From contig CM097886.1 in NCBI GenBank assembly GCA_044892525.1, positions 107,322,001-107,386,000 of the forward strand: a DNA stretch of 64,000 nucleotides, read 5' to 3'. This DNA is from Schmidtea polychroa. Its lineage: Eukaryota. Both the position numbers and the translations under genes were made by a program. Below are positions 1 through 28,100 of the stretch, piece after piece. Numbering within the stretch: position 1 is the stretch's first letter; every line of letters starts with the position of its first letter. Below the pieces are notes generated by a model, which saw only the letters and a program-made list of their open reading frames with translations, was not told the origin of the DNA and made no database searches.

Positions 1-1878
1 CATTTTTATCCGCGCAGGAGAAACATGGGCGAAGAGTTTTCTCAGCAGTTGTAAAAGTAGTCATCTAAAGAATGAGAAGTCCTTTATTTACATCATTAAA
101 ATCCTTTCTACTATTTATTTTCTTTTTATCGTGAGCTTTATCCTACCACATATGCATACAATCAGGATTGTCCCCCACATCCATACCTTTGACATCACTT
201 AACTCATCCAAACCGTAAACCTTCAAATCAACCCATCACATCGTTCGTAATGAAGAGAAAATGAGAACCATCACACGTTATTTCTCTACTCATATTGATA
301 TTGTACCTAGGTTCCTGGGTCGACAGTTATCATCTAATCGCAATAAGTTACTCCTTACCACGGATATATTTTTTCCACTTTTATTTATTATGACCTATTA
401 AGGGTGGGTCTACTCCCTGGTTTTTATGGCTTATTGCGTTATGCCTGCTTTAATTTAAAAGAAGTAGTTCCATACTGTTGATGCACTTGGCGCTGTATTA
501 AGTTAAAACGAATTTGTTAAAAATTATTATTAGTATTAATTTCCCTCATAAATTATAATTTAATTATTTAAATTTTCGCATTTCATGTTGTCATAACGAC
601 GCGTATCGGTATGTAGTTGTGTACTGGTTTCAGACTCTACCTGATGTGCGCTAATGTGTATTATCTCGTTTTACTCAATTATCGCTGTCCTCTCTTAACA
701 ACTCTAGACATGGTGTCTGTTAGTGTACTTTGATCTCGTCGTTTATTTATGTATGCCTACTAACACATTCTACTATGACGCAATGATGATGTCAACTCAC
801 ACACGTCCCTTGTACTAGTGGATTTATCTGTGTGTGGGTTTGGGCCTACTTATCTCAGTTATAACATTATTAGCAGATGGGCTAGACGGATGGAAGATAA
901 TGATTCAGGCTTATAGAAGTAACGATTGTTATGATTTCAAGATTGCCCAAATCTGTTACCGGGTAAAAATGGATTTAACTCCTATCTCTCTCGTGAATGT
1001 TGACTATTCTCAAAAACCTAATCGTCTCATCGATTTGGCGCATGTCGTTCCACAATCGAACCGCTGGAATATTTTATCTACGCTACTTGCTTCTCTGCAA
1101 TAGTCGTTTCTCGATCAGATGGAAAATTTATCGATAATTTGTTCGAAATGGTCGATGATAATTTCCTTTAGGACTGTAATAAGTACCTATGATTAATTAG
1201 AACTTTGCTGTTTACTTTCCTGTCAGGACGAATCCTTATCGATGACAGTAGTTAATCGAAGGTTGATAACTAAGTCTCCTACTCGTCAAATGACATATCA
1301 CCGCGATGGGTTTACTCGCTAACGTTCTCTTAATTTATCAATTCTTAGGAATATAGAATATTCTAGATTTTTATCATTCCTCAAGAAACGAAAATGGACG
1401 TTAGAATTATCAGTGAAGTTCGAGAATTTCATTACCCTCAAGGATAGTCGATATTCACATTCTGACGAAAAGAAGTAACCTAGCTCTGAATTGAATATGG
1501 CCGAACTCAAACTCGGATTAAATATCGAAAAATGTCGTCGATCTCCTAGAATTTTCAGTCAGCACGTTGTCGGCATCGAAACCAGTATCGTTCAGAAGTT
1601 TCCTCAATAGAAAACTTCCGACGGCTAATTTTATGGATATCACTCGATGAAAGGATCATTGACTCGATTCGTTTTCTCTCACAGGGTTTCCTCACCCCTC
1701 ACAACCCACCCAAGGACAGTACGCATTTCTGCCCACTGCCCTTGGACCGTCGTGAAGGACAACTCGACCCGACTTATCTCAAATCCTTCTCCAATAAATG
1801 TACAATTAATAAATTCATATTACTGTCAAACAAATATGGGAATAATGAAATTAAAAGAAAAATCAAATAAATAAACGT

Positions 1879-2118
1879 TTACCTAGCGACCACGCCATCT
1901 GGATTCCGGGTATGATGACTCTTGCCATCGTAAATTTTTACATTCATTAAGTAATCATCATAGTACCCAAGTTCATGTAGATCCTTGGCTGGTTCTGTCA
2001 ATTCAATTTCTGGGTATTCATATTCATAAGTTTTCTCCGAAATGCATACGTAATCCAGCCGCATCATACCCGAACTTCAAAAGACGTCGTCGCTAGCATC
2101 ATAGAGAGAAAGCAACAT
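1879..2118 (-). other. Small LTR ORF (62 aa; 79 codons if the TGA at 2077-2079 is read through); also at 28291-28530 and 54703-54942
   Basis: MLLSLYDASDDVF*SSGMMRLDYVCISEKTYEYEYPE...; short, no family recognised. Confidence 0.3.
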
Positions 2119-2402
2119 CTTTTGTTTTTAAATATAAATTTTATTGAAACATAAAACGTCTTTTGATATTAAATTCATAGTAAACATTAAAATTATCATA
2201 CTAAAATTCAAAACATAATTTACCAAAATTCTCCGAAGGTGTTGGGATTGAAATCAAAGTTTTGTCAAATTTTTCCTTAGTTAGACTGGTTCTTCTCAAC
2301 TGGATTCGATCTCGACTATTATTTGCCTCTAAGTACTATCTGTTATGTCCAAGTATGAATATCGTTCGTAAGTCTGTGCTCGTGAGTGGTTCCTAGTTTC
2401 GT

Positions 2403-2484
2403 CCTGTAGAGTTTCGGGTTAGAATGATCATGATTTTAAATAAATTTTACCTGTAGAGTTTCGGGTTAGAATGATACTCTACAG
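2403..2484. repeat. 26-bp direct repeat plus 9-bp hairpin in U3 (present in every LTR)
   Basis: CCTGTAGAGTTTCGGGTTAGAATGAT at 2403-2428 and 2450-2475; CTGTAGAGT (2451-2459) pairs with ACTCTACAG (2476-2484). Confidence 0.85.
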
Positions 2485-3256
2485 AGTTTTGTTGCTCTTT
2501 ATATATTATTTTCCGTCCAATCAGGACACACCTTGCTTGTAATTTTGTTATTTATTATTATTTTATGTTTTTCTTATCGTAGTATATTATATTTTAATGA
2601 CCCTACCTATTTCTATTATTGTTTTATTTATTTTCCTATTTTTTATTATTTTTCTCCTATTTTTCTGTGGTTTTATTGCTATTTTATTGTAACTTCATTT
2701 TTTGTTTTAATTATCCTTATGGATGATTTTATTTTTATTTTGTTTTCCTTTAGTTTTCGTTTGTTTTCCCTAAATTTTGTGCCATTTTATTTCTCTTTTA
2801 CTGTTGTGCTCATTGGGTGCCTTCCCTTTTGTCTTATTTCCCCTTTACAGGTTTTGTTATTTTATTTAGTTATTCTTGTTTCTTTATGGATGTTTAATTT
2901 GTTTCTTCCTATATTTCTCGTAATTTTTATATGTTTTTATTTTATTTACTCTGTCTCTTCCTGGGTTCGTTTTTCCAACACCTTCAGAGCTTGGCCCAAC
3001 AAATCACTCCGGGGGCCGTTAAAATTGCGTCCCGCAATTCACACAATATCATACATTTAGATCATACCTTCTTTCGGTATAACCCATAATCTCACAATCA
3101 AAATCCACACAAACATAAAATCAAATTAACACAAAAATACTTTAATTAAACAGAGAAAATGACAAATATAAGCAAGCAGTGGCCACTTAAGGTGACCGGT
3201 TTCATCAGAAGATAATAAAACAGCAAAAATTTTGTCAATAGTTACAGTTCGAAATG

Positions 3257-3916
3257 TTATGTTTGTTGTTCGGTTGCCGTTGATGATGGGTGATTTGGTT
3301 GTTGGGTTTCGATGTTGTAGTATATTCGGCGACTTGTGGACGGTCTGACTGTTTCTGCGATGGAGGTTCGTTGTCGGAGATTTTCTTGGATTACGTCAGC
3401 CATATTATCTTCTTGGGATCTTCAAGACGATCTTTCCGGTACGGGGTGACTTTTCTTCCAAACTTGGTAGATATTATGGATTTTTAGGAGGATGATTACC
3501 ATGATTACGGTGGTTTCGACGATTACTACGTAGAGGAGTTCATGGTGGTCATTTATTTCTTTGGCGATTTCTACTGGTTCGACTGGGTTTTGTATTTCTT
3601 GATGTTGGACCTGTTGTTCCAGCTGATCGAGTTGGTGAATTTGGTCCAGGATTCTTTTATCAATAATTTTGCACATGGGGTGGTTATTACACATTAATCT
3701 GATATTGTTGACGTACGTTCGGGTAACTCGAATATTGTCGGTAAGACGGGTTTTTAGGATACTTGGATAGATGCATGATTTGGCTGTTGGTTCGGTCTTT
3801 TGGTTGGGTTTTCTGCTGTCTCGAATATGTTCAATTTCGGGTTTTACGGGTTGTCGCCTTGTCAGATCAAGGACTATCGTCATCATCAGGATTATTATGA
3901 TCGGTTTGTTTCTCAT
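3257..3916 (-). CDS. Accessory putative membrane protein; stops at TGA 3422-3424, or continues 54 more codons to TAA at 3257 if read through
   Basis: N-terminal MRNKPIIIILMMTIVL and second hydrophobic stretch LLYVVIVETTVIMVIILL. The frame stays open after the TGA (RSQEDNMADVIQENLRQRT...). Confidence 0.6.
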
Positions 3917-3975
3917 ACTACTGATATACATTTAGTAATTTTATACACATTTATATACATCGCTTTTTGTCGGTT

Positions 3976-4683
3976 TTAATTTTGTCGTTTCTTTTTAGGG
4001 TTTTTCTCCCGGATTCGCATTAATTTAGACTCCGCTTTAATGACTCTATGTCGGAGTTCCGGCAACATTTCTAGTTGTCTCTCTTTCTCCTGGACCTTGT
4101 CTGTCAAGTGTCTTATCTCTCTTTTCAAGGTTTTTATCTCCTTCTTCTTTTCTTTCAGGTTCCGTTCCAGTTCCAATTGTAGGAAATCATTTTCCTCTGG
4201 GTCGTTTGTCTTTGAGTTTTGTTTCTGCCGTTTTGTTTCTATTTCTCGATATTTACTATTCCATTTCTCCATTTCTGTACTTTCTTGTACTTTTACTTCC
4301 AGCTGGTTTTCTAACTCCTTGATGGTTTCTTGTCGTTTCCTTGCTTCCGTTTTCCAATAATCTTCGATTACTTCGTTTGCCTTGAAACTGGCTCTCTCCT
4401 GCCATAATTCTTCCGCGATCTTTTCCCAATTTCTCCCTCGCTTTCTTTGTTCGTGAAGCCATTCGTTTTCTACTTCTACTTCTTTCTTTATTTCCTCCAA
4501 TGTTTTGCATTCCCTTTTTAGCGCCTTTATCATTCTTCGATCATCCATATATTTGTCTATCATCCTTTCTTTTTCCTGTTTCTCCTCTATCAACTCGTCC
4601 TTCGGCGTTTTCATTTTTATGGGGTCTGTTTCAATTTCTCCCTCTTCTAGCTCGGTCATGGTGGATATTTCTTCTATTTTCAT
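3976..4683 (-). CDS. Accessory coiled-coil protein (~235 aa from MKIEE)
   Basis: Long K/E-rich ORF; likely ATG at 4683, preceded by TTGTAG|AA. Confidence 0.75.
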   Translation of the reverse strand: MKIEEISTMTELEEGEIETDPIKMKTPKDELIEEKQEKERMIDKYMDDRRMIKALKRECKTLEEIKKEVEVENEWLHEQRKRGRNWEKIAEELWQERASFKANEVIEDYWKTEARKRQETIKELENQLEVKVQESTEMEKWNSKYREIETKRQKQNSKTNDPEENDFLQLELERNLKEKKKEIKTLKREIRHLTDKVQEKERQLEMLPELRHRVIKAESKLMRIREKNPKKKRQN

Positions 4684-4858
4684 TTCTACAATATTTACAA
4701 TTAATAGTGCGCTACAGTGCGGCTTATACTTATACATTTATAGGTAATTTTATATAATCAGGGTTACAGTCCCGTAAATATTTTTATCGTACTAATAATT
4801 TTTTTTTGTTGGGATACAGGTCCCGCTTTTTATATTTTTTTATCTTTTCTCCTTATCT

Positions 4859-5897
4859 TTATACAAAGGTTTCTTCCTGGCCTACATACCCTTCATCGCT
4901 GTCTATTGACGTTTGTAGTTGGATTGCGATGGGATCGAATGGGATGTGGTACCGGGGAATCTGCGCTCTAAGCTCCTGAACTTCGTCTCTTAGCGCTCTT
5001 GACACGTTGAGTTCCTCGTCTAACAGGTATGTCAGATACCTGGTTTCATCATCTCTTACTTCTATCTGTTTTTCTAACTCCTCCGCTTTTTCGCCGTTCT
5101 CCCATTTTTTGATCTCCTTTTCGAGGTTCTTGATATTTTCGTCATACATCTTCCTCTCGTTTTCCAATTTCTTGTTCTTACCGGCTAGCACTATATTCCT
5201 TTGTTCTAGTGCCCCCTTATAGCCGTTATTGTCTCTTTCAAGGTCTGCCACCTTGTTTACGAGTTCGACGATTCTACCTGACTGTTGCAGGATCATCTCT
5301 TCCATGGCGGTATTCTCCTGTTCCTTCATGGACAGTTTCATGGCCAGATGCCTTTCAAATTCCATGGCCTTGGTCTGCCAGGTTTGACTTCTAGCTGCTA
5401 CTTTCCGGAGCCTTCTTAGCTCTTCTTTCTGATCCAGGTTTTCTTCCCATTTCCCTTGATCACTCTCGTGTTCCAATCTCTGCGGCAATTCTCTCATCTC
5501 TTTTTGGATTTCTCGATGTTGTTTTTTTCCCCTTTCTGGCTTCTGCTAATAGTTGGCGGGTCTTTCTTTCCTCCTTTTGTTTTTCTATTTCCCGCTTCTT
5601 ATTCTCATCCGTTAGTCTTTTTCTTGACTCCTGTACCAGCTGCTTCAGGTAATGCCCGTGTGCCTCTTGCCTGGTATTTTCTAATGCCGACCATTTGGCG
5701 GCTCTTTTGCAGGCCTCGGCCTCCGCCCGTAAATTCTGTACTAACCACTGGAACTGGTGGTTTTCCCATTCTCTCGCTTCTTCGAGGTAATTTCGTGTTT
5801 GATTTGATAATTGTGCCATCACTTTGGCCCATCTTTCTCTATGTATTCTACTGATGTTTATTTCGTTATTTGGGGCTTCCGTTTGATCTTGAGTCAT
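4859..5897 (-). pseudogene. Coiled-coil accessory gene split by a 1-nt frameshift in an A7 run
   Basis: Removing one A from GGGGAAAAAAAC (T7 at 5522-5528) joins LLAEARKGKK to QHREIQKEMRELPQRL in a continuous helical protein of about 345 aa. Confidence 0.65.
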
Positions 5898-6115
5898 CTT
5901 TGTCTAAATAACGATATCATTAACTCAACGTTGTACGCTTTTATCTGGTTTATTATTTATTTATTTTTACAATTCGTTATAGGAGTTGTTTTAGGAGTTT
6001 TACGCTTAAGTTTACCTTTAGTAGATTTGGGGGATTTTTCTACACTACTATATAATATTTTACGGGGTATATATGCCGATATTTACAATTAGTATATACA
6101 AAATTATTCGTCTCT

Positions 6116-7504
6116 CTACTCAGTCCTACTCTTCCCGTCTCGCCTCACCGCTATTTTTATGTATATAGTGTCGTTTCTCGTCATGTCTTCTACTTTCCGC
6201 TGTAGGATGAAATTCGGTGCTCCAGTTGCTGGTCCTTCTTCTTCCAAGGGCCTTTGGTAACATACGAGGTTTCCCGCTGTATGGAAACTCTGTTCATGTA
6301 TACTTTGATAGTTCATCATTGCGAGGTCTATTTTTGCTTTGAATGGCCATTCTATTAACTCGTCGTATAGCCCTTTGCACATCAAGAAGAATACTGAGAA
6401 ATGCGTTCCGTATGCACTTCCATCCCCATTGGGGTATGCTTTCATTTTCATTTTATACCCGTTTTTTCATGAGTAGAATGCTGGACTTAGTAATGTGGTA
6501 TCCTTTCCATTTCTCGCTCTCTGCATCTTCTCTTTTACTCCCGTTATTTTCCATATGTATGGAGCCGTTGGTATTAATTCGTTGAGGTTTAATTCGCTTA
6601 CTTTTTGACGTAGTTCTTTCACCATAATGTTGCTAGTTTCCACTAGATCTGTCTGTATCTTTGTACTTGTTCTCGCCTCTTCAAATGCTTCCTTTTCTTC
6701 CAATAACTCTTTTACCAACGCTTTTAGCGAGACCATTTCTTTCTCTAAGTTTTCGGTTTTCCTTTCGTTTTCTTGTAATACCGTTGACCATATTTCCGCG
6801 TGTGTTGATACGTTTTCTGCTAGATGTTGGGGTAATTCTCCTCGGTGTAATTGTTTCTGACATCCCCATTTTCCTAGCACACACGTTATCTTTTTCCTTT
6901 CACATTCTCTGAGATGTTGAGCGAGTCTTATTACTCCAGATTTATCGCATTTATTGGGACATTCTCCTCTGAACCCTGCTCACACTTTCTCCTCTTGTAT
7001 GTTGTGATGTTGACTGATTAGTTTTTTCCAGGTGTCGGTTTCTCCGCAATACTCACATTTCTCCAGTCTTTCTTCGCATCGACTTTGATGTTCTGCTTCT
7101 TCATTGACTTTAATCTCTTCTTGGCAACGTTTGCATTGACTGATTTTATACTCACATTGCTCCATATGTTGCCTCACTTCCCATATCCCTCCTCGCCAAT
7201 TGCATGGGGTGTTTTTACATCCTAAATTTGAATTTAACATATCTTTCACGGCTGCTTTATCTTCGTTTGTATCTCCCAAACTTGTTATCATGGTTTCTTT
7301 ACATACTGGGCACCATTGTGGTCCCTTCTTTATTATCTCCTCTACACATTCTCTGCACATTCTGCATCCACATCTGGTTTGGTGAGGTTCTCTTAATAAG
7401 CTCTTGCATATTCCACACGTTACATGGTTGTGTATTCGAATTGTGGTGGACTTTCTGACTTGTTCAACAATTTCTTTGAATTCTTCTCGTTGTCGCTTAT
7501 CCAT
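6116..7504 (-). pseudogene. TRAF: Full-length TRAF-family gene (RING, TRAF zinc fingers, coiled coil, MATH) with two in-frame TGA codons; pseudogene or read-through
   Basis: The three track ORFs (6980-7504, 6467-6880, 6116-6451) share one frame of 463 codons. RING CGICKSLLREPHQTRCGCRMCREC...CPVC; CPNKC zinc finger; MATH YIWKI...SPAFYS*KNGYKM..YPNGDG...THFSVFF...G.YDELIEWPF. Confidence 0.92.
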
Positions 7505-7593
7505 TTCTATAATTATATATATACATATATTCGTTACTGGTACAGTTTCGTATTTTTATTTACAGTTATTTACATTGCTATTTTAGGTTATAT

Positions 7594-7953
7594 TTATTGG
7601 CTGGAAGAGTCGGCCTCTTGTCCGCCCTCTTCCCTACTGGTTAACCATTCTGACCAGTCTTCTATCTCCTCTCGCTCCATCTCTTCCGCGATTCTTATTA
7701 ACTCCTCTTCTTGCACCTGGCTGTATCGTGATATTCGGTCTATCTCTCGCTGCATTTGTTCTATTTTTATTCGTTGGTCTTCGATTATTCTTACATAACT
7801 GAAGCCTTTATTTAAACTTTCGACTAAGCTTCTTTGTACAGCGAGTCCTTGTTCCTGTAAATTCGAAATCACTTGAGTTAACATTGCACATTGTTGTTTC
7901 CACATCTCCTCGGTTGTCGTACTGTGATTTACTTCCTCGCCTATTCGCTCCAT
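7594..7953 (-). CDS. Accessory acidic coiled-coil protein (~119 aa from the ATG at 7953)
   Basis: E/Q/R-rich ORF bounded by AT-rich spacers; no family recognised. Confidence 0.6.
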   Translation of the reverse strand: MERIGEEVNHSTTTEEMWKQQCAMLTQVISNLQEQGLAVQRSLVESLNKGFSYVRIIEDQRIKIEQMQREIDRISRYSQVQEEELIRIAEEMEREEIEDWSEWLTSREEGGQEADSSSQ

Positions 7954-8121
7954 TCTTAATTTATATATACTTTTCAACCCTTATCCAATTTTATTTTTAT
8001 ATTATTTATCCCCATCGTTATATAATATTGATACCGCGGTTATATAAAAATATATCATACTGTTATATAAATAAATATTATCTACTTACTTTTTACAATC
8101 TATATACAGTCATAATCCTTT

Positions 8122-9125
8122 CTATATACGTGAGCTTGGAGGGCGCTGAGCATTCCAGGCCTCCACCCACTGTTCCTGCTTGATATTACTTGGTCGTTTT
8201 ACACGATGTTGAAAATTTCTTATTCTGGCCATTTCTAGTTCTCCGCGATGCCGTCTATCTTTGATTATTTTTATTGTCCCCCCCGTTATGATTAAAAAGG
8301 CCCCTGTTATTATTATGCCGCTGATCCACATCATCTGTTTTACGCTTATAATTTCCGCTTTTTCCTTGTTCATTATTGTTGATATTGCCTCTGTGCTTTT
8401 TAGATTACCGTCTTTGCCATTTCCTTTTATCATTCCTCGTATTCTTGCTATTTCCTCGTTCATACCTTCCTTTGCCATTCTTTGTATTTTCTCCATCTCT
8501 TCCTCTGATACATAATTGTCCTGATATTTCTCACCGGTTTTCTTGCGTTTTCCTTGCTCATCTTTTTCGTCATTGATTTTTCTTTTCTTCCCTCTTTTCC
8601 CAGGGTATCGTCGACATTCTCTTTCTGGACCGTTTCTCAGGATACAGACCGTATATTCCTTTGGTGGTTGTTGTTGCGTTACATATTGCAGACAATTTTC
8701 TCCTGGGCCTAGCCTTGAAATACACACTTTGTGCTCTTTTCTTGGTTGAAGCTGTGTTATCACTATTTCACCTCCTTTACTCAGGTGTACCTCTTTCCAT
8801 TTGACTTTTGTTATCTTCTTCCCGTTTCGATGTTGGTACGCTTCTTGTATTCCCACTTCCGTTATTGGTTCTGCATCTTCATTTTTTAACACTAGTCTCT
8901 GATAAGCTCTAGACATACATCTTCCTAATATACACCTTTCTTTTAAATCCCATTCTTCTTTTAGATCCCATTGCTGCTCTTGTACTTGTTTTTTCTTTTC
9001 TTGTTTTAGTTCTTCCTCTTTGTTGTCCTTATTTTCCGTTTCTTTGGCTTCTTTTATCGTTCTCATTCCTCCCTGGGCTGTTATCATTTCCACCATTGTT
9101 AATACGAGTATCATTATCATCATAT
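8122..9125 (-). other. C-terminal type-I-membrane-protein-like module
   Basis: Signal-like MMIMILVLTMVEMITAQG (9071-9125), two Cys-loop repeats, and TM MMWISGIIITGAFLIITGGTIKII followed by basic KDRRHR. Confidence 0.6.
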
Positions 9126-12100
9126 TTGTCTCCACTTCTTTGTTGGTAAAAAGTAGGCATACCCTCTGTTTTCCACTATTCGTCTTTTCTTCTTGCTTCA
9201 TTCGGTTTCCCGGGTTATTTTCCTCTTTTTTCCTACTCGCGTCGTTATTTTCTTGATTATTCTCCTCTGATTTCTCTTTCTCTTTATTCCCGTTTCGACC
9301 TTTTTCATTATTATCGTCGTCTTTATCGTCTTTATCTCCCCCGCTATCGTTTAAAATGTCGTCCTCGACATTTATATCATTCAACAGTCTGCGGTATGCC
9401 GTTAGCACCCTGTTTCTTGCTAATTTTGCTTCGAATTCGAACTCTTTTCTGCCTGTTGCTGCATGTCTCTTTCTATTCCATTCTTTTACTAGTTCTCTCA
9501 ATTGTATACGGCGATGTTTTCCGATTCGTTTTTGTTCGTTTAGATTTTGCGTAAATTTGAGGTCTTCTCTGTTCAATACTATCGTTATGATTTTCGGAGT
9601 TCCTCCTTTTGTTAATGTATTTTTAACCATGGCATTTTCTCCGTTTTCATAGAACTCATTTATATTTATTGCATATTTATTACTTTGCGGTAATTTCCAT
9701 GTTAACAATAGCTTCATGGCTTCTAAGTTTTTCCGTATCGTGTTCCATTGGAACTGTGACGTATTTTTACAGATATTTTCTACCTCAGTTCTTGTAGCAT
9801 TTTTACAAATGAATCTAATCATTTCCAAGTTTGGTTGTATTGTTGCCCAATCCATGGTAGAATTTCCTTCGTTTGATATTTCGTCAAGACTCGAACCTGA
9901 TTGATGTAGTATATGTAAGGTTTTCGGGTGTATCTTTGTTATTGCTGCATACATCATTGCTGTTTCTCCTTGTTCATTTTTTGCATTAGATTCTTCTCCG
10001 AAGTCTCTAAGAATTCTTATGATGGTTATTGCTCTGTTTTCTTTTGCTGCTAAAATGGCTTGTTGTAATGGTGTTCTTGAATCTTTTGTTGGTAAGGTGA
10101 ATGCGAGTGGTATAAATGTTTTTATTTTTCCTATGTCTAGATTTGTGGTCTGGTCTCTTGCGTAGGTGTGTACTGTTTTTGTTATTTTTGCTAGTATCGC
10201 TTCATCGGATAGATCTTGCCTTTCCTCCACGAATACTTCTTTAGCCTTACGTACTACTATCTCTTGGTCGGAGTTTATTATCTTTGGTTTACTTGTTGTT
10301 GCTATATCGCTTATTATTTGATTGACTCGTTTCTCAGACTCCCTTGCTGTTATTTTCTTGGTTTTTATCCTTTTCTGGTTCGAACTGTTAATGCGTTCCT
10401 CTGCCGTTAGAACTTGAATAATACTTAGGTAGTTTTCTCGAATGTCATTCATAGTTTCCATCATATATAATACACTCACGGTTTCCCAAAATTTTTCTTG
10501 TACTTTATCGGTAAATTGAGATATAGCTTTTTCGAAGTTGGTAATTCGTTTTCTGATTAGTTGTTCGTCTTTGTGATTTGAGAACTTTATGCCACGTTGT
10601 AGTAGTTGATTTGGAATTTCGAATAGGTGATGTCCTCTCATCGCTTCTCTCATCAAGGTGTTTTCTCCTTTGGTAAATGTTTCGTTTATATCTACCATAT
10701 AATCGTTTTTGATCGGGTTCCTCCATGCAATTAGTAATCCAGCAATTGTTATTAATTTCTCTTTGATTGCAGTTAATAGCCCGTCATACATGTTTCCTAT
10801 CTCCCTATTATCCTCGTATGATAATAGATCTACTAAGATTATGAAGGCTTTCGTACTTTTCCCTTCGATTGCATGATGTAGTGCATTTTTCTGGTTGTGA
10901 TCTTGTGTGGTTATCTTTGACCCAGTTTCAAGTAATGCGATATTAATATCTTTAGCTTTATCCCGATTGGCTGCTATCATTAGTGGAGTGTAACCTTGGT
11001 TGTTTTCTTGATCCGTCGAAATGTTACAGTCGCGAAATGCTTCGATCGTTTCCAGTATTTGTTCATTATTCCCGACCTTTAAAAGTTTGTGCAGCGGTGT
11101 ATCTCCATAATGGTCTGTGATCGTAAATAATATAGGCCATTGACTTTTTACTACCCTGAGTAATGGGTGTGTTCTTTCTCGGTTTGCATAGTTTTCGATC
11201 ATGGTTAGCAGACCTCCCAATATCTCAAAATCTAATCTGTCTTTTGCCCATCCGGGCATTTTAGCTTTCACTTCCTTTATGATTTTCTCGGCTTCTGATG
11301 GTTGTAACCCCAATCGGTTACCTGTTGGTTCGTTTATCTGCTGTAACACATTTATTCTATACGTTTGTGATCTTGTTGTTAATGTTCGCCCTTCCGGCTG
11401 GCTGGTGGCTGTTTTCGGTATTGGCTTACATCGTGCCACGTTTACATATATTGGCCTCGTGAAGGGGTTGTTTACCAATCGTACTCGCACATTGGTTTCT
11501 CCGACGAATAGAATCTCATACGGACCTTTGCCGTTTCGTTGTAATTTTTTGGTGGTTCCTGGAATTAATTCTGGTGTTTCGATCATCACCCAATCACCGG
11601 TTTGAAATGTATGTTGTTTAACGTTTTTCTTTCTATCATGCAGATCTTTGTAACTTTCCTGATAAAACTTTATATTTAATCCCGCAGTTTCCCAGATTTC
11701 TTGCATTCTTTCCTTGAACTTGGTTACATAATCATCTATTTCCATATACTGTGATATTGGTGGCTGATATTCTAAATCCATTGGCATATTGCATTCTCTG
11801 CCGTACATCAACTTAAACGGACTCATCTTTGTGGACGCGTGAATCGACATTCTGTAAGCCATTAAACATAATTTTATATACTCGTCCCAGTCGCGTTGAT
11901 GACGATCGACATAATTTGATAACATTTGAATCAGTGTTCCATTGAATCTTTCTGTCATACCATTAGTTTGTGGATGGTACGGTGATGTTCTTAATTTTGC
12001 GATCTTGAAGTAGTTGGTGACTTCGCTCATTATTTCGCTCATGAAATTTGTCCCCTGATCGGTCAGTATCTGTTTTGGTGTTCCATATCGACAACATATC

Positions 12101-15100
12101 TCTTCCACTAATATTTTCGCGATTGTTTTTGCTTTCTGATCTGTCATGGCGAATGCTTCCGGGAATTTCGTCAAATAATCCGTAATCACCAATATATATA
12201 TATTCCCTCTATCTGATTCTGGTAATGGACCGACTACATCCATAGATATCATTGTCATTGGTTCTGCTGGTACTGGCATTGGCTTTAATGGTGCCTTCCA
12301 TTTTGTTCCCGTGTTTTTTCTGGTGGCGCAAGTTATGCAATTTTTCACCCATTCCGTTACATCCTCGGTCAAGGTAGGCCAAAAATACTTTTGTTTCATT
12401 CGGGCTAACGTCTTTTTAGATGACATATGTCCTCCGAGTCTACCGTCATGATATTGCGTTAGCAAATCTTTACGTCTATTCTCGGGAATGCACATCAGTC
12501 TTTTCTCGCCATCCATTATCAATAACCAGTCTTTCTCTATTATATATCGATGTCGATGTTTATCCATATGCTCTTTCAATTTTTGATCTTTCTCATATAC
12601 CTCTGCTTTCCCTGTTTTCACATATTCAATGATTTGCTTCAACTCTGTATCCTCTTGTTGGTCTTTCCGTAATTGGCAAAAATCTAAATCTTCTGCCACC
12701 ATCAGACATATTCGTTGCATTTCGTGATCTACTAAATCTGGAAAGATAAATCTTGACATACAATCTGCATTGGCATTCGCTCTTCCCGCTTTGAATTTTA
12801 TGAACGGTGAATATTCTTGTAACTGCATTGCCCATCGCATCAATCTGCTTGACGCCTCCTTATGCTGACCGAGCCATACTAATGGTTGGTGATCTGTGGT
12901 GATACATATTTCGTGTCCCCATAACAAATATCGAAAATGTTTAATCGCTTGTATAATTGCTAACGCTTCTCTCTCGGTTACGGAATAGTTTTTCTCATGC
13001 TTTTTAAACGTTCTGCTGTAGTATCCAATCACTCTTTCTTTTCCTTCTTCATCCAGTTGTCCTAATATTGCTCCGGCTGCATATCCACTTGCATCTGTTG
13101 CTAATAAGAACGGTTTCTTGAAATCAGGATGTACCAGTATTGGGGCTTCAATTAATTTATCTCGCAATGTCTCAAATGCTTTTTGTTGTTCTGCACCCCA
13201 AATAAATGAAATATCCTTTTTCACTAATTCCTGTATTGGTTTCGCAATACCTGCATAGTTTTTGATGAATTTTCGATAATATCCGCATAATCCGAGAAAT
13301 TCTTGGACTTGAGTGACGGTTTTCGGTGCTGGACAGGTTTTTATTTTCTCTATATTTCTGGGATCTGGTTCTTTGCCTTTTGCTGACACTATGTGTCCTA
13401 AAAACGTAACTTTCTCTTTTGCCCAATCACACTTTGATGGTTTGAGTTTCAATTTCCATTGTCGTAATCGAACGAACACGTTTCTGATATCCTCCAAATG
13501 TTGTTCGAATGTTGCTGAATATATTAATAAATCATCAATATATACCATGCACTGCTTGATCCCGTGCGTGACGAAATTCATACATCTCTGAAATGATGCT
13601 GGGGCATTGGTCAGTCCAAATGGCATTTTCCTGAATTGATACAGGTCTCGACCCAACGTGAAGGCCGTTTTCTCCTTGTCTTCCTCTTTAACTTTGATCT
13701 GCCAATATCCGCTTTTTAGATCTAAAGACGTAAAATATGCGGCCCCTTGCAGCATAAGTAACATCTCATTGATGTCTGGTAACGGGTATGTGTCTCTTTT
13801 TGTTACTGCGTTTAGTTTCCGATAATCGATACAGAATCTCTGAGTACCGTCTTTTTTCTTCACCATGACTACCGGAAATTGCCATGGCGAACAACTTGGT
13901 TCGATCACTTGTGCATCTAGCATTTTTTGTACTTCTGCTTCGGCTATCTCTTTTTGCTTCTCTGCTAGTTTGTATGGACGTAGTGCGATTGGAGTTTCGT
14001 CTATTAATGGTATTGCGTGTAATGTAACATCGCATGCTCCCAAATCTAAATCCGAAATAGCGAATATATCTTTATATTCTATCAATAATTGTTGAAGTCT
14101 TTCCTTTTCTTTTTCCGTTAGCAATGTGCTATCGATTGTCCATAATTCGTCAGCTTTCGTTGTTTCATTGGTGATTTTTGGTAATTCGATGTCTATCATG
14201 GGTGTCAATCTACCCAATCTTTCATTTTCATATATGATCTTGTCTTCTTCCTCGAAATTTGTGATGTTAATTGGTATTTCCCCTTCGTCATTTATTGTTA
14301 TTATTTCTCTTGCTAATGGTAATTCTCGTCGTTTTTCGAATGATTTGCTTGGCTCAAAAATGGCTTCTCCTTCCATTCCTGCATCCACTTTTATTTGACA
14401 TATCATCTGGGATTTTGCTGGTACAATTATTTTCTCCGGAAATCTGATTATTGCGTTCATTTTGCATATTCTACCCATTTTATCTTTTAGGCACATTGTT
14501 GTTAGATCTATTACTACTTCTTTGAACAATTCCGGCATTAAATCCGTTCCGATTATACATGGTTCACTCAGTTTGGGTATCACCGCTAGATACGTTTCAA
14601 TTTCATTATCTTGATATCGTAACGTAGTCCACCATCTTCCTACTACGTCTACGGTTTCTTTACTGCATGCAATAATATGGATAGTTGTTTGTTCGATGTC
14701 TTTCCAACATTTACTGGGTATTTGGTTTATTGCTATTGCTGATACATTTGCTCCGGTATCTATCATTGCGCTTGTCTCTTTCCCGTTGATTTGGATCATG
14801 ACTGTTACTGCCGCGCCTCCTGGTGAACTCATTACTGCTATTGTTCTGACGTCATCAGCTTGGTCTACGCTTTTCGTTCTTCGGGTTGGCATATAGTTCA
14901 TTCCTGGTTGACTTGGTAACTGTGGATACATATTTTGTGTCATGGTCAAAGCTGTTTGTTGTCCAACGATATCTGGTGGTATATAACTTCCGTTGGCTAT
15001 CCAGGTATTTGTTTTTTCTTTCTCCCAATATGGCGCTGTTTCTATTGGCTTTTCATTCGGGTTTCTGCTTGGATATGGGTATTTGTCATTCCCATTGTCG

Positions 15101-18100
15101 TCATCATCACTATCGCTGCTGTTTGATCGATTTCTAAATCTGTCTAAAAATTTTGGTTTGTTCTTTTTCAGTTGCGTCCTTGTTGCTTCATCATACATTG
15201 TTTTCCGAAATCGTCTACCGACTTCCTCGTCAGTCCCTTTTATTTTTGTCAGTATTTTGATTAACCGTTTTATTCTGTGTATATCTTTAGAATGACCGTG
15301 CAACACCATTGTTTTCGCCAAAAATGGTAGGAAGCCTACTATCAATTTCCAATTTACTTTCTTTTCTCTCTTATAGATATCAAAACACGCTAACATTTGA
15401 GTCAATATTACTCTGACAATCTGAATAATTAAGATGATTCCCAATATTCCTGCCATCATTTGACCGAACACTAGAAATCTTCCCCACATTGCTTTCATCA
15501 TGTTTGACGTGGCTTGTTGAAAATGATCGGGTGACAATAATAGTTCGTAATTGGGACCTGATTGGAAATTCGTTCCCCCAGTTATGGTAACCATATTTGA
15601 TAGAATGGATTCTCGTCTTGCTGGGAATAGTACGTTTAGTCGTGCTGTTTCTAAATCCTCTGCTGAGTACATACCTGCTTTTGACACATCAATTGGTTTG
15701 AAATCTTGCTCTGTTGCGAGTTCTATTAATCCAAACTTTTTAGGCTCTTGTACTTCGGTTTTTACCGGTAACATTATCCATTTCCCATCGGGTTTTTCAT
15801 ATAACGGTCCGTATGCATTTGAACAGTTAAAGGTGTTCGGATAAAATCCAATTGGGTTCATAATTCTAGTGACGGGTTGAACGAATCTGTTTTGCCCTTT
15901 GTAACTAATTTCCAACTCGTTTGCGCATTTCCCTGGTGGAATTGTGGGTTTTCTTGGCAGTCGCGCAAACGTCTTGGTACATGCATATGTATACATTACC
16001 TCTCCCACCATTCTACCAAAATGTCCATCCGGTAACGGGAGTGATGGCATTGTGTTATCTGGGTGTGTTATTGCGATGGCTAATTTTGTTTTTAGTATCT
16101 CTTTATTCAATGAACAGTCATTTTGTATAAGATCGTAGTATACTTTTTGCATTGTCGTTTGTCCTCGATGAAATAAGAAGTCCATTTTGTTATTGGCGTA
16201 CAAGTACAATTTTACGTCCTCTGTTGATACCTTTCCCACTGCTCGGTCTATTACTTGCCTTGACATGTAGATACCTGCGTAGTTCGTCCGATATACTATG
16301 CTGTCACATTTGGTGGTCTCTTTTTCTCTGATGAATCTCATACCGATATCTGGATCATCTGTAATTAATGCCGTTGGTGTTTTTTGTGTTGTGAGTCTCT
16401 TTTCTTTGGGGGATGGTGGAACTGGTTTCCCATTTCGCATCCTTACGTTTCCATTCTCTTCATCGTCGTCTTCGTTTTCGTAAATTTCTCCTTTTACTTC
16501 ATTGAATAGGGCACTTTTTAACAATTGGAGTCGGCATTTTTGGGTGTTAGCTTCATAGATTATAGTCGAAATTCCCGTTCTGCACACGTTTTCCGTAGCT
16601 CTGCATGCTGGGTTGGTTTTCATTTGATAGTTGTTTGCGTCGAATTGTGCTTCGTATTCCTTCAACTCCACTGTGTAGGACTCAATTACTACTACTCCCG
16701 ATATCACCTCTCCTCTGATCGTATATGTGCCTCCGTTACATGATCCATCAGTTGATTTTACTCGTCCGGCTACATAGATACTTTCCGTCTTGATCATTCC
16801 GCTTTGTCCGTGTATTGTTACTCCATCCCTGATTCTCATCGCTCCGGTTCTAAAAAGCTCTTTACAGTCTTCCCGTTGTATAGGTACTATTTCTTTATCT
16901 AATCCAGGTAATATGAGGGTTGAATATGAGTATTGTCCACAGTAGTATGCCAACACTTTCTTCGATACTACGCATTCTCTAGCTTGCGTTCTAATGAAAT
17001 CTGATTCTTGGTATACGTGATAGGAGACTTTCTTTTTTACTATATCTAATTTATTCGGAGATGCCTGTCTACATTCCTCTATATCTCTCAGGGAGTATCT
17101 TTCTCCTATTATCGAATTGTCACAGTCGTAAATTGTAAATCCCGCGGCTCCACTGGTGCAGAGCATCCATATCATCATGGTCATCATTAGTGAATTAATC
17201 GACGCTTTTCTGCTGGCTGGGTCTTTCAATGGCAATTCCCATTCCAGCTCGTTTAGCAATTTCTTCAACCGAATTTGCATTGATCTCTCTTGGTCGTTTT
17301 TTCGTGGCGCTTGTATGAGTCTTTTCCACCCACCGGCACGGATAATATGTGGTTCGATTGTATTTTCAATGATTGTAACGGTCATTTCTACATGATTTGC
17401 GAATTGTTTGTTAGGTATTTTCCTTGCTGCTAATCCCATCAAATTGTACATTAGATACGTTAATACTACTAAATGATGTTCGTCGTCGTTTGCGTTTAAA
17501 GTTAATTGTTCAATTACTCTTCTTGTCTCTTCCCAATCGGTTTTAGTGGTTTTTGTCTTCTCTTTGATTAATTTCGGAATTATTCCGGATATTGTATTCC
17601 ATAGCTGTCTGGCATCTACGCTTGCTACTTTTCGTTGCCATAACCGTCGCAATTGTGGGTTCGTTATTATTAGCATATCTTTTACTAGCTCTCGTATCCA
17701 TTTTTCGCCTCTTTCGATTGTTGGCTGGGCCTCTTTTAGATCCCACACTATTTTATCCAGTTTCTCCAATCTGACTTGTCCTTGTTCTTGTTTCAGTTGT
17801 TCTCTGGTTTTGAATTCTGGTTTTTCTCCTTGCTTCCTAGGTCTTCCTTTTGCCCGTTTCTCCATCATTGTTCCAGTCTCTCTGGTTGTTTCGTAACTCG
17901 GGTTTCTCTCATTATCTGTTCTTGGCAATGAGCTATCGTTGTTTCTCAACCACTCATTCCATTCGTCTATTATTTTGTCCGTTTGACCTTCTGGTGTTGC
18001 TTTCGTTGGTCCTTTCTGTCGTTGGAATTGTTCGTCGGTTTCGGTTTCTGTTGTATTATCGATAATCTCCTCGATACTTAGCTTATTTGGCTGCTGATAG

Positions 18101-21100
18101 CTAGTTGACGGTTGGCTTGTTGTCCATATTTCGGCTCCTGTCGGCCATCTTACCAGAATTTGTGATCTTTCCCCAGCTCCTTCATCGCTGTCTTCCAATA
18201 TGATCTCCTCGATCTCCTCGGTTTCGTTTGATTTACTCGCCACTTTGTTAGGGCTTGGTGTACTCAAGCTACCTTTCGTAGGTTTACTGGATTTGCTCTT
18301 CCTTTTAATCGGTTTTCCCAATGTTTCTGCCATTGTCAATACATTGATCTCCCCCAATCTCATGGGTGTTATTCCGACATCTGCATTATCATCCAACGAT
18401 TTTCCGAATAGTTGTAGGTGAAATGGAGTTTCGTATGCTAATTTCTTTTTTAACTCTCTGATCTTTGTTGTTGGATGTACTTCTGTATCCTCAATGCTTT
18501 GGTCGGGATACTTGACTCGGATACGATACCTTTCCTGGGTATCTTGTGCCCATTCTTGGTTTCTCCATTTCCTAATAATTTGTTCTAGCTGCTCTGGGTA
18601 CCATTCGTTATATTGTCGGTATTCCTCAATCGCTTTCGCCATTTCTCTTAGATTGTGGATATTCTCTGATGTCTTTAGGATGATGTTAGCCAATGCTATT
18701 ACTTGTCGTTTTTGATTTTTTGCTCCCGTTGCTAAGATATCACCTAATTGTTTATATCTTTCCTTCTCTTCTCGTTCTCGAGCTTCCATCGCTTCTTCGC
18801 TGTCCATATCGGCATATTCGCGTTCTTTCTTTCTCATCGCATGAATATGTCTGGTTTCCGTTTCACTTTCTGACGTAACATCCGTTTCGCTTTCGTCGTC
18901 CGATATCGATTCTATTTCGTCCTCTTCGTATTTTGGAGGTTCATCTTCCTCTTCTTCTGATTCACTTTCTGTCTCACCAATGTCTGTTTCTACGAAAATC
19001 CCTTTCCTGATTTCCCATTCTTTGTTTTCCGCATTCCACATCCTTTCCCATGGGGTTCGTCTGCAGGATCTAGTACTCAGTTTCTTTATTTTTCCTTGAA
19101 GCTCTTTTTCTTTTAGCCACTGTTGATGAATTTCAATTATCTCTACTGATTTTTGGTATAGCGTTTTCATCCTGTCTCGTATTTCTTTCTGGTATGTTAC
19201 ATCTCTTGTTCGGAATTCGTCCATGGGCAATATTTTGATGATTTGATGATTATCCCACATTCCCATTTCACTTAACGAGGTATCGTCTTCAGCCCGTAAT
19301 ATTATTTTATCGTACATCATGACTACGTCATCTATCATACCATCACTACTCTCGCTTCGTACCTTTTCCGTTATCTCTTGGTTTATCTTGGTTACTAAGT
19401 CATCCACCGTACTCTGATTACTCATCTTTATTCGTCGTTTCTCCTCGTTTGGTAACCATATGGTTATTTCTAATTTCTGCGGTTGCGTTTCTTTTAATCT
19501 TCCGTATTTGTGGATCAAATTTATGGTTCTCCAATCGCTCATCCTGAGCAATTCTGTATCTCGTAATCGGCTCATTAGTTCATGCATAGTTGGGGTTCGT
19601 TTTGCTATGAGCAAATCCCAGTTGTCTTCAACTTGTTCTTGGATTTGTTTGATTAGTTTATCTAGATTCCGCCTTAAAGTGCATTGTTTTATTTGTTCCA
19701 ATTTCAGCTTGATATTGAAATCGTATTCAGCCTTGGCGTCTTTAGCCCATTCATGAACATTAGCTGGTTGCTTCTCTTTATGCAACTTCAATATTTGAGT
19801 TTCTCCTGGCCAGATCAATGCATCTATTAGGTGCATGTCTGGTTTGATTTGTTCTCCTTGATATTGATACAGATATTCTTTCTTTCTTGAATTACCCAAA
19901 TGTTCTCTTATCCAATCGAAAAGATCGTCTGTAACTGTATTTTTTATCCATATTCTCTCGAGTCCTTTACTCGTTCCGATTTTTATTACGTAGCGTGTTG
20001 TCTCCGCTTGTTTCATTTTTTCCATATACTTCTTTATTATCGCTTTCTCCTCGCTTGGTATTAAATCTTTTTCGTTTCTTTCCAGTTTCATTATCTTTTG
20101 TATGAAGCGTCTGTATGGTATGATGTCAATGAAATCCTGGTTTCTTACCACCACTGGAAGTATTTCTTTTACTTGTTTTATCGCCTCTTCTTTTTCCTTT
20201 CTCAGTTTCATCTCGATATTCTCATCTTCACTTTCGCTTGCCACATCGCTTTCACTTTTCTCCTCATCTTCTCCGATCTTTTTCTTTAGTTGTTCGATAT
20301 TTTCATTTAACTGTAATATTTCTCCACCAAGGCTACTCACATAATCCTCCTCGTCATCTGTTGACAATACCTTCTTTGTCGTCCTCATCATGTTAATTCG
20401 TAAGTTTCTCATTCTTGATACTTTCTTGAGCTTTTTATTCTCAAATATCGTTAATTCTTCCGATTCTAATTCTTGTACCATTTCATGGGTTAAATGACTA
20501 GTTTGTTTCTCGTTTCCGTCATTTATCGCTTCTGCTTCTGTTTTTGTTTTCTCATGTTCTCTTTCGATCTTATCTTTTATCTTTTTCCAAAATATTTTCT
20601 GGATTCTCTGATTTCCCTTTAGTGGTGTTGTTGGATTTTCCTTTTTATCTTCCGTAACCGTTTCTTTCGGCTTCTCTGGTTCGATCATAGGTACAACTCT
20701 TGGATTTTTACCATAATTGTAACAATATTGCTCCTTTATCTCTTTTACCATTCTCATCATATTTATTCGTAATGGTTGTTCTTGTCGCTGCTGAATTCGC
20801 TCTCTTTTTATTCTCTCTTCCTCAGCTTGTAGTCTCTGCCATTCTTGTGCATGTTGTTGCACTTCATAATTGTTAAGATTTTCGGTGCTCCTCATCATAC
20901 GTATATTCTGAGTTTGTTGTGCTACTGGTTCTTGTCTCGGTCTCATCATTTGTTGCATCATCTGTTTCATTTGTGAAATTTCTTGCATCACGTTCATTTG
21001 CTTTCCTTCACTGGGGTTACTTTGTCGTTGCGGATTAGGTGCATAATTATTGTTTCGTTGTGGTGGTTGTTGTTGTTGGCTCCTTTCTCGGCAATCTCTT

Positions 21101-25183: not shown

Positions 25184-28100
25184 TGTTGGCATATGTGGGG
25201 AAAAAGAAATTTGTTGCACACATCATCATCTCACATCTCACATACCCTGCATCATTACTCCGCTCAGATACTCCCCATACATACACCAAATGATCATGTA
25301 CATATTCCCACGCATGAGCCCGTGGTGATGTTCCACGTTGGTGCTGCTCACACGGGTTGGAAAAGGTTAGCAGGTGAGCCTCTGCCTTAAGACTACTCCT
25401 AACCCTTTCTCGATACGGGTTCTACGGTGCCTTAGAAGGTCTTACCCCGTCCCACATACACAATTCGGTCCGACCCTGGTCCAAGGGGACGACCTTGTAT
25501 TATCACCTACATTCGACATCATCTTTCCACTCGTATCAACTTCGATATCTCACCTGTTAAAATCAATCATCAGAAACAATAAAAGATGTATTAACTTATA
25601 ACAAATCATTACACGCAGAATAATCAAGAACTGTTTTACATGTAAACATACAGCATTTATAAACACGCAAGTTCACTTCGGGACCATGCATAGAACAAGG
25701 CACCTTTGAATTGATCAATCGAAGGGTTCTCCATCCGCAAGCATTGCGTCGATATCGACCGGCAGTCGTGGGTTAGAAATGTACTTGATGCCTTCTGCCG
25801 GTATTACACGAAAGATTTCCTTTGATGGGATGGAATGGCTGGAGGATATTTCTCTTATGGTAGATTGAGCTACAGATAGTGACGCCTCGAGAGCAGCCAT
25901 CGCATCTCGGCGTTTCTGATTTTTCTCGGCTCAGGTCGGCCGTTTCCGTTTGCGAGACGACGGGGGATTGTCAGTGTGCGGGGTGACGACGGTTGCCCCC
26001 AAGATTGGAGCCAAGATGGGCTCGGTAGGTCTACCTACCAAGGGTTGAGAACCCGATAAGATTGGAGCTGGAATGGGCGGTAGGCACGATCCATGCCCTT
26101 GGCAGCTCGTAGCAGTCGGTTCGGATACTTGATGATGAAGAGGGAAAACGTTCATTTTCTCTATGACGGGAAATTCCCGTACCCGCTTGGCGAGTTCTGC
26201 CTCCGTATAAACCTTGTGGAGGGCTTCTGATTGGGCTTTGATTGTAAGCCGTTGGCATCGGCTTTCCTCCAGCAAGCTATCTCTACAATGTTCTAACCGG
26301 AGGATTTTCTTTCGTTCCTCCTTCATTTGTGGCGGGGAGAACCACGTGCCTTCGTAAAGGTCGATTCTTTTCTTTAAAGCCCCGATGTATAGATGGAGCT
26401 GCGCGATATCTGCATTTTTATCCGCGCAGGAGAAACATGGGCGAAGAGTTTTCTCAGCAGTTGTAAAAGTAGTCATCTAAAGAATGAGAAGTCCTTTATT
26501 TACATCATTAAAATCCTTTCTACTATTTATTTTCTTTTTATCGTGAGCTTTATCCTACCACATATGCATACAATCAGGATTGTCCCCCACATCCATACCT
26601 TTGACATCACTTAACTCATCCAAACCGTAAACCTTCAAATCAACCCATCACATCGTTCGTAATGAAGAGAAAATGAGAACCATCACACGTTATTTCTCTA
26701 CTCATATTGATATTGTACCTAGGTTCCTGGGTCGACAGTTATCATCTAATCGCAATAAGTTACTCCTTACCACGGATATATTTTTTCCACTTTTATTTAT
26801 TATGACCTATTAAGGGTGGGTCTACTCCCTGGTTTTTATGGCTTATTGCGTTATGCCTGCTTTAATTTAAAAGAAGTAGTTCCATACTGTTGATGCACTT
26901 GGCGCTGTATTAAGTTAAAACGAATTTGTTAAAAATTATTATTAGTATTAATTTCCCTCATAAATTATAATTTAATTATTTAAATTTTCGCATTTCATGT
27001 TGTCATAACGACGCGTATCGGTATGTAGTTGTGTACTGGTTTCAGACTCTACCTGATGTGCGCTAATGTGTATTATCTCGTTTTACTCAATTATCGCTGT
27101 CCTCTCTTAACAACTCTAGACATGGTGTCTGTTAGTGTACTTTGATCTCGTCGTTTATTTATGTATGCCTACTAACACATTCTACTATGACGCAATGATG
27201 ATGTCAACTCACACACGTCCCTTGTACTAGTGGATTTATCTGTGTGTGGGTTTGGGCCTACTTATCTCAGTTATAACATTATTAGCAGATGGGCTAGACG
27301 GATGGAAGATAATGATTCAGGCTTATAGAAGTAACGATTGTTATGATTTCAAGATTGCCCAAATCTGTTACCGGGTAAAAATGGATTTAACTCCTATCTC
27401 TCTCGTGAATGTTGACTATTCTCAAAAACCTAATCGTCTCATCGATTTGGCGCATGTCGTTCCACAATCGAACCGCTGGAATATTTTATCTACGCTACTT
27501 GCTTCTCTGCAATAGTCGTTTCTCGATCAGATGGAAAATTTATCGATAATTTGTTCGAAATGGTCGATGATAATTTCCTTTAGGACTGTAATAAGTACCT
27601 ATGATTAATTAGAACTTTGCTGTTTACTTTCCTGTCAGGACGAATCCTTATCGATGACAGTAGTTAATCGAAGGTTGATAACTAAGTCTCCTACTCGTCA
27701 AATGACATATCACCGCGATGGGTTTACTCGCTAACGTTCTCTTAATTTATCAATTCTTAGGAATATAGAATATTCTAGATTTTTATCATTCCTCAAGAAA
27801 CGAAAATGGACGTTAGAATTATCAGTGAAGTTCGAGAATTTCATTACCCTCAAGGATAGTCGATATTCACATTCTGACGAAAAGAAGTAACCTAGCTCTG
27901 AATTGAATATGGCCGAACTCAAACTCGGATTAAATATCGAAAAATGTCGTCGATCTCCTAGAATTTTCAGTCAGCACGTTGTCGGCATCGAAACCAGTAT
28001 CGTTCAGAAGTTTCCTCAATAGAAAACTTCCGACGGCTAATTTTATGGATATCACTCGATGAAAGGATCATTGACTCGATTCGTTTTCTCTCACAGGGTT

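Follow-up and report, generated by a model that had tools for sequence, protein, structure and literature searches.

A TRAF accessory frame with two array-private TGA codons in a giant Burro-like LTR retroelement of Schmidtea polychroa

A tandem array of a Burro-like element

The window (the whole 64,000-nt stretch of S. polychroa DNA that was analysed) holds a retroelement array on the minus strand, laid out as LTR, internal part, LTR, internal part, LTR. The array is a tandem of two units that repeats every 26,412 bp; over 29,413 bp, the units differ at 2 sites. The element measures 30.6 kb, with LTRs of 4,230 bp that have TG...CA ends and an internal part of 22.2 kb. Its LTRs, polyprotein and accessory ORFs other than TRAF are as follows:

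1..3001, minus strand, last LTR of the array (4,230 bp, starting 1,229 bp left of the window)
3422..3931, minus strand, accessory ORF cut short by a private TGA to 169 aa (seven other copies have frames of 220-224 aa)
3976..4737, minus strand, intact accessory ORF of 253 aa, no Pfam match
4859..5897, minus strand, accessory ORF, frameshifted in the array and thereby split (about 350 aa long in most copies)
7594..7953, minus strand, intact accessory ORF of 119 aa, no informative Pfam match, between pol and TRAF
8122..21996, minus strand, intact polyprotein of 4,624 aa (Pfam run on its 4,731-codon frame)
25184..29413, minus strand, middle LTR shared by both units, TG...CA ends, hybrid of both outer LTR types
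51596..55825, minus strand, first LTR of the array

A 4-bp target-site duplication lies at the outer flanks of the array, and the outer LTRs differ from each other at 3 of 4,230 sites. In the middle LTR, positions 112 and 996 are as in one outer type and position 3807 is as in the other. This is the pattern expected of unequal crossing-over, which may have produced the array; an assembly join inside an LTR would mimic it. A further tandem pair, with a spacing of 26,393 bp, was seen in the genome (loci L010 and L011).

The polyprotein, encoded in each of the two units, comprises, in order, gag, zinc knuckles, a weak Bcl-2-like stretch, a Monjiviricetes-type fusion protein, protease, reverse transcriptase, RNase H, integrase and ankyrin repeats. 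Env in frame between gag and pol and ankyrins after the integrase, both identified with Pfam, make up a Burro-like layout. The Bcl-2-like stretch before env gave a weak match to Pfam Bcl-2 (E 0.054), at the place expected for Burro elements, and no PDB match. Pfam found neither MATH nor BIR in the polyprotein or the other accessory ORFs of the array. On its layout and domain content, the element is provisionally classed as Burro-like, not as Burro1.

Other features of the window include tandem repeats of 74 bp (23194-23705), located in the leader that separates LTR from gag, and a 181-codon ORF within the LTR (25931-26476), which lacks a Pfam match and has homologues in both of the other element lineages described below. 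The flank carries a stop-free frame of 288 codons without a Pfam match (59077-59943) and a MITE-like element of 550 bp with 95-bp inverted ends (63224-63773). ARAGORN found no tRNA.

The TRAF frame

Five accessory ORFs lie between pol and the 3' LTR, and TRAF is the second of them. The sequence-only reading placed TRAF downstream of pol; it does lie inside the element behind the polyprotein, but the 119-aa ORF comes between the two. The TRAF features are:

6116..7504, minus strand, full-length TRAF frame (462 codons plus TAG) with RING, zinc fingers, coiled coil and MATH, interrupted by two stops
6467..6469, minus strand, premature TGA at codon 346, early in MATH, private to the array
6980..6982, minus strand, premature TGA at codon 175, in the third zinc finger, private to the array
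32528..33916, minus strand, identical second copy of the TRAF frame, with both stops

The frame runs from the ATG at 7504 to a final TAG at 6116-6118 (463 codons including the stop) and is cut into three stop-to-stop pieces of 191, 170 and 116 aa. These three apparent ORFs had been read as one frame with RING, zinc fingers, coiled coil and MATH, and Pfam, matches to TRAF proteins and a structural model confirm this. The RING was detected on the first piece (zf-C3HC4, E 2.2e-5, 24.6 bits against a cut-off of 21) and TRAF-mep_MATH on the third (E 4e-22). On the second piece, zf-TRAF scored below the cut-off (E 2.5e-4); the zinc-finger Cys/His columns are invariant in our alignment A1 and are modelled at pLDDT 72-90. 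With the stops bridged by X, the protein matched the TRAF domains of TRAF3 and TRAF2 (E 2.5e-28 and 1e-26) and the RING/zinc-finger region of TRAF6 (E 4e-15), and its coiled-coil (TRAF-N) part aligns to the TRAF3 coiled coil. An AlphaFold model built on a 12-row alignment (mean pLDDT 84, pTM 0.36) shows the RING, the zinc fingers, a continuous helix at 232-304 and a beta-sandwich at 316-454; its best match among solved structures is TRAF3 (Foldseek E 5.6e-17). For the TRAF protein of a sister subfamily of elements, all ten of the nearest ESM Atlas clusters carry the TRAF MATH family. In the alignment, the receptor groove differs from that of TRAF2 in its serine-rich part, whose residues have a receptor-binding role in TRAF2.

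Thus, the domains and the position between LTRs support the earlier view of a full-length, intronless TRAF carried as cargo by an LTR retroelement. The sites of the two stops had also been placed correctly: the first TGA interrupts the third zinc finger where the spacing calls for a zinc ligand, and the second falls early in MATH.

Private nonsense damage

We compared the two TGA sites across copies of the element in its own genome. In a DNA search, 40 of 359 candidates were scored and 30 were fetched, including the two of the array; all 28 others have sense codons at both sites, as do 21 of 21 other copies in the set used for dN/dS. In a protein search, 92 of 1,889 candidates were scored, all of them full length. 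Only 2 of the 92 carry the two TGAs, both in the array, and among the other 90 copies, 84 are stop-free and a single TAA or TAG interrupts the remaining 6. Each TGA allele was also searched for as an exact string including its flanks, a search that would miss copies changed elsewhere in those flanks; this returned two matches per allele, the two units of the array. Both TGAs are ordinary nonsense damage private to this tandem array. The suggestion that they hide a TRAF awaiting read-through is not borne out, as other genomic copies replace them with sense codons.

The TRAF stops are not the only damage. The frameshift in the ORF of about 350 aa and the early TGA in the last ORF were likewise found only in this array, which brings the private gene-breaking lesions to four (3422-7504), in three of the five accessory ORFs, and none in the 4,624 codons of the polyprotein. 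The chance of all four falling in the accessory block is 0.003 by length, a post hoc value for a copy that was picked for its stops. Among the array-only accessory substitutions, 3 of 7-8 are nonsense where about 5% would be expected (binomial P 0.006-0.011, also post hoc). A cross-copy Fisher test of the stop excess gave P 0.018 and was given no weight, as its two-allele filter had dropped one stop of the array and one of another copy. Because the outer LTRs are near-identical, most of the lesions would predate this insertion; simple post-insertion decay is thus not a full explanation, given the nonsense excess together with these LTRs. Relative to its nearest copy, the array TRAF has 1 synonymous and 6 non-synonymous differences (a ratio of 1.56 on 7 changes), so that its recent changes look neutral rather than purified.

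Most likely, the array lineage lost accessory genes under relaxed selection while it needed its polyprotein. Loss of TRAF was probably tolerable with so many intact copies as a source of the protein in trans; the polyprotein, by contrast, stayed intact. Alternatively, the accessory block may have been knocked out under selection, as costly to host or element, leaving a "disarmed" element with an intact polyprotein. On the one hand, this would fit the concentration and apparent age of the lesions and the share of nonsense changes, and all five near copies, read along most of their length, show the reverse pattern, with a stop or frameshift in the polyprotein and none with a TRAF stop. On the other hand, the case comes from one lineage and one insertion chosen for having stops, the TGA alleles are in no second insertion, so the lineage has not spread, and relaxed selection plus chance would give a similar picture. 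We therefore consider a selected knock-out unlikely and favour relaxed selection.

The product of the array TRAF would stop at codon 174, and this 174-aa fragment is most likely non-functional. The sequence-only reading proposed that such a RING/zinc-finger product could act as a dominant negative, here on host or element TRAFs. Codons 1-174 do hold the RING and two whole zinc fingers, but TRAF trimerisation and receptor contact need the coiled coil and MATH, and a fragment without them should neither trimerise nor reach receptors. The classical dominant negative, TRAF2[241-501], is the opposite half, with the TRAF domain kept and the RING absent (PMC2196258, in part). A shortened duck TRAF3 isoform is inhibitory, though it too keeps the TRAF domain (accessible part of PMC5863512). 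Two such copies would also face at least 84 intact ones, and the second, downstream stop adds nothing to the proposed role, which makes a dominant negative very unlikely.

We regard it as similarly improbable that assembly errors produced the tandem and its private changes. Near-identity of the units would be compatible with this, and the array's letter at 6467 is in no public contig checked (such contigs drop rare variants). However, a target-site duplication flanks the array, other tandem pairs exist in the genome, and the hybrid middle LTR is as unequal crossing-over would leave it, with the caveat of a join inside the LTR given above. Moreover, both units share all lesions, so a base-calling error would require duplication of a unit in silico as well.

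Programmed read-through, or selenocysteine recoding, of both TGAs to give full-length TRAF at a tuned level is hardly credible. It would suit a frame that is otherwise whole, in which both stops are TGA, the first of them at zinc-finger ligand spacing, and near which a third private stop is also TGA. But the TGAs are private to one array among the 92 copies scored; the two sites hold different residues in intact copies, and no single recoding would suit both; an Rfam scan of 1-8200 found no SECIS or other relevant match, only one chance-level bacterial sRNA match; and read-through could not repair the frameshift in the ORF that follows. Given the stop frequency of the remaining copies (6/90), the probability of one or more two-stop insertions among 91 is 0.18. 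The 3' contexts of both TGAs fit no read-through motif that we know of. An alternative genetic code was rejected on the 4,624-codon ORF without an in-frame TGA and on other ORFs that end in TGA, and an intron or frameshift joining the TRAF pieces on a single frame without indels relative to 25 of 28 copies.

Retention of TRAF across element lineages

Twenty of the 92 scored copies were fetched with flanks (the 13 most diverged, 4 intermediate and 3 near; two are identical). The end of the polyprotein lies directly upstream of TRAF in 19 of the 20, and the remaining copy has an internal deletion there. Pairwise dN/dS (NG86) was 0.118 for the family TRAF (21 sequences), 0.136 for the polyprotein C-terminus (20 sequences) and between 0.08 and 0.10 for three further accessory frames. 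Within TRAF, the values were 0.13 for RING, 0.17 for zinc fingers, 0.14 for coiled coil and 0.07 for MATH. Judged from these substitution patterns, the family TRAF is under purifying selection about as strong as that on the polyprotein. A TRAF confined to this array with dN/dS near 1 would have spoken against the capture; instead, the TRAF is spread over 92 scored copies and its dN/dS, about 0.12, is far from 1.

The arrangement is shared by three element lineages. In a sister subfamily, TRAF is 68-70% identical and sits in the same place in 10 of 10 loci read (dN/dS between the subfamilies is 0.09, with dS near saturation). A Burro1-like family has MATH inside a 4,791-codon polyprotein and, in the same place as the array family, a separate 487-codon TRAF frame that is 32% identical. 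The order polyprotein, small ORF, TRAF is common to all three, and a homologue of the 119-aa ORF occupies its place in each. Because TRAF holds the same position in three lineages down to 32% identity and has a low dN/dS, this cargo is old and retained.

The Burro1-like family shows further variation. Its downstream TRAF ORF has a BIR-RING IAP ORF directly after it (L115:839-3618), a neighbourhood that echoes the TRAF2-cIAP pairing; no IAP ORF next to TRAF is present in the window's family. In another copy (L144:2937-7133), an internal deletion fuses part of env in frame to the downstream TRAF, giving a 1,399-codon frame. A small RING ORF lies upstream of gag in this family (L121:1800-2279).

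Origin of the element TRAF

Database homologue searches returned 17 and 18 distant TRAFs (24-29% identity) and no flatworm relative. All 10 genome-derived rows of alignment A1, element and host, have the same RING ligand variant and an insertion within zinc finger 3, whereas the two outside TRAFs have neither, which points to a TRAF of the host lineage as the donor. We built two trees, one of MATH domains with 53 rows (14 from elements, 33 host-type, 6 outside) and one of full-length sequences with 19 rows; 4-6 distant TRAFs served as outgroup, and the element clade is unstarred in both. Here "host-type" means that no Burro ORF was found in the 3-10 kb read around a locus; near two of these loci there is a distant pol fragment. 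In the MATH tree, element rows fall on one side of a branch at 63/72, downstream TRAFs group at 89/86, and the two-frame host cluster stands apart at 95/91. Support for the element side in the full-length tree is 88/85, which is not conclusive. The pattern suggests a single, ancient capture of a host TRAF of the planarian lineage, ahead of the split between the element lineages.

The element had also been proposed as a vehicle for the expansion of host TRAFs, with intronless host paralogs nested inside the element clade as its expected trace. Neither tree shows such nesting (0 of the 33 host-type TRAFs sampled in the MATH tree), and the proposal is unsupported. In AU tests, for which both groups were named after the tree was seen, forcing four conserved host TRAFs in with the two close subfamilies was rejected (p-AU 0.015), and forcing in the host pair of L126, at 28.396-28.400 Mb of G000:C4, was not (p-AU 0.073). 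Seven host-type TRAF frames of 454-487 aa, some of them paired, run from RING to MATH in a single exon (L126, L129-L133) and are 24-32% identical to the element TRAF. Intronless structure is thus no marker of element origin; the single-exon host-type genes could possibly stem from ancient retroposition in the host lineage.

Element copies are numerous among MATH matches in the genome. About 94 of the best 150 matches (1,551 candidates) look element-borne, a call made by frame length and match pattern, with 6 of them read directly. The genome also has large clusters of short, two-frame RING and MATH host TRAF genes (L090-L113) on contig C2 of the assembly (G000:C2), at about 105-124 Mb and 1-5 Mb; the window, at 107.3 Mb, lies within the span of the larger one.

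Candidate expression signals

The TRAF start codon is preceded by the following spacer:

7505..7593, minus strand, 89-nt spacer ahead of TRAF; poly(A)-type hexamer 56 nt upstream of the ATG, splice-acceptor-like AG immediately before it

This spacer is 85-89 nt long and carries both signals in all three element lineages. Within the array, the operon-like, AT-rich spacers at 5898-6115, 7505-7593 and 7954-8121 place an acceptor-like AG 0-6 nt ahead of an accessory ATG and a poly(A)-type hexamer some 40-60 nt upstream; such spacers are conserved between the element lineages. Each motif, chosen after inspection, arose in less than 0.5% of 20,000 shuffles. The last two accessory spacers of the array family lack both signals. 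Public contigs over 3000-9000 and 7250-8150 represent related copies, and among the matches listed none shows a splice joint or leader at the TRAF acceptor; the survey covered four runs per region, whose RNA origin was partly guessed, and contigs cannot show transcript starts. The signals suggest that TRAF may be translated from a sub-genomic RNA, formed by splicing to the acceptor next to its ATG, with the upstream part supplied either in cis by the LTR leader or by spliced-leader trans-splicing, which occurs in planarians (available parts of PMC12582326 and PMC8629364).

Proposed function

We conclude that the frame is very probably a broken copy of the TRAF accessory ORF of a giant Burro-like LTR retroelement, that its TGAs are nonsense mutations private to this array and that the family TRAF is maintained by purifying selection, likely as an adaptor and ubiquitin ligase that would tilt host death or immune signalling for the element. 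An intact element TRAF would be predicted to trimerise and to bind host partners through its altered MATH groove, and its effect on host death and immune pathways could go in either direction. Action on signalling of the apoptosis, NF-kB or JNK type is moderately probable, judging from TRAF biology and from the Bcl-2, BIR and ankyrin cargo of Burro elements.

A far wider reading can be drawn, in which Burro elements are retrovirus-like parasites with a spliced, operon-like 3' cassette whose own TRAF (and, in one lineage, a BIR-RING IAP) rewires host death and immunity, element copies make up much of the reported planarian TRAF expansion, old Burro elements seeded some intronless host TRAFs, and the array was disarmed by selection. 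As a whole, this reading is doubtful.

Comparison with known systems

Burro, or GYPSM1, denotes giant Gypsy-like LTR elements of planarians (Jurka 2007; Grohme 2018; reviewed in PMC6431247). Published cargo includes MATH_TRAF_C, BIR, BCL2-like and ankyrin domains, and MATH has been described in ORF1 of Burro1 and in an upstream accessory ORF of a Dugesia tigrina element (PMC6431247). Like Burro, the element of the array is about 30 kb long and has LTRs, a polyprotein of around 5,000 aa, a mononegavirus-type fusion protein between gag and pol, ankyrins, accessory ORFs and MATH cargo of the TRAF type. Unlike in Burro1, its ORF1 has no MATH and a complete TRAF forms a separate ORF downstream of pol; and unlike in Burro1/GYPSM1 proper, the array family has no BIR, whereas MATH and BIR occur in another family of the genome. 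The apparently new part is the whole, separate TRAF ORF in a Burro-like element; MATH cargo was already known. Our literature search found neither a complete TRAF ORF downstream of pol in Burro nor a link between Burro and planarian TRAF numbers; the Grohme 2018 supplements and the Repbase GYPSM1 entry, which may describe such an ORF, were outside its scope.

Such a link would matter for the planarian counts of TRAF/MATH, given as 121 domains (PMC6109357) and 282 contigs (PMC7586133) in the accessible parts of these sources. Because about 94 of the best 150 MATH matches look element-borne, these counts may include element copies, which probably inflate them, and results of TRAF RNAi and expression studies may include them as well.

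Animal TRAF2/3/5 and planarian host TRAFs (PMC7586133 and PMC6109357, in part) share the domain order and fold of the element TRAF, which differs from them in being element-borne and high-copy. Viral TRAFs offer another parallel: that of megalocytivirus (ORF111L, reported to induce apoptosis in the available part of PMC3352826) and those of iridoviruses and giant viruses are also host TRAFs captured and kept by a mobile genome. The best viral fold match of our TRAF model had an E value of 1.5e-26, and the iridovirus TRAF one of 3.8e-19. Viral TRAFs, however, sit in DNA viruses and are 10-29% identical to the element TRAF, and at such identities the captures are likely independent. For expression of a downstream ORF, Cer1 of C. 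elegans is a precedent, being a Gypsy element with a spliced sub-genomic mRNA that can take a spliced leader (accessible part of PMC3315495), whereas the element of the array is known by its DNA signals, which precede several accessory ORFs in a row. With a retroelement that keeps a whole TRAF under selection of polyprotein strength, the suggestion that Burro elements meddle with host apoptosis and ubiquitin pathways (PMC6431247) becomes testable.
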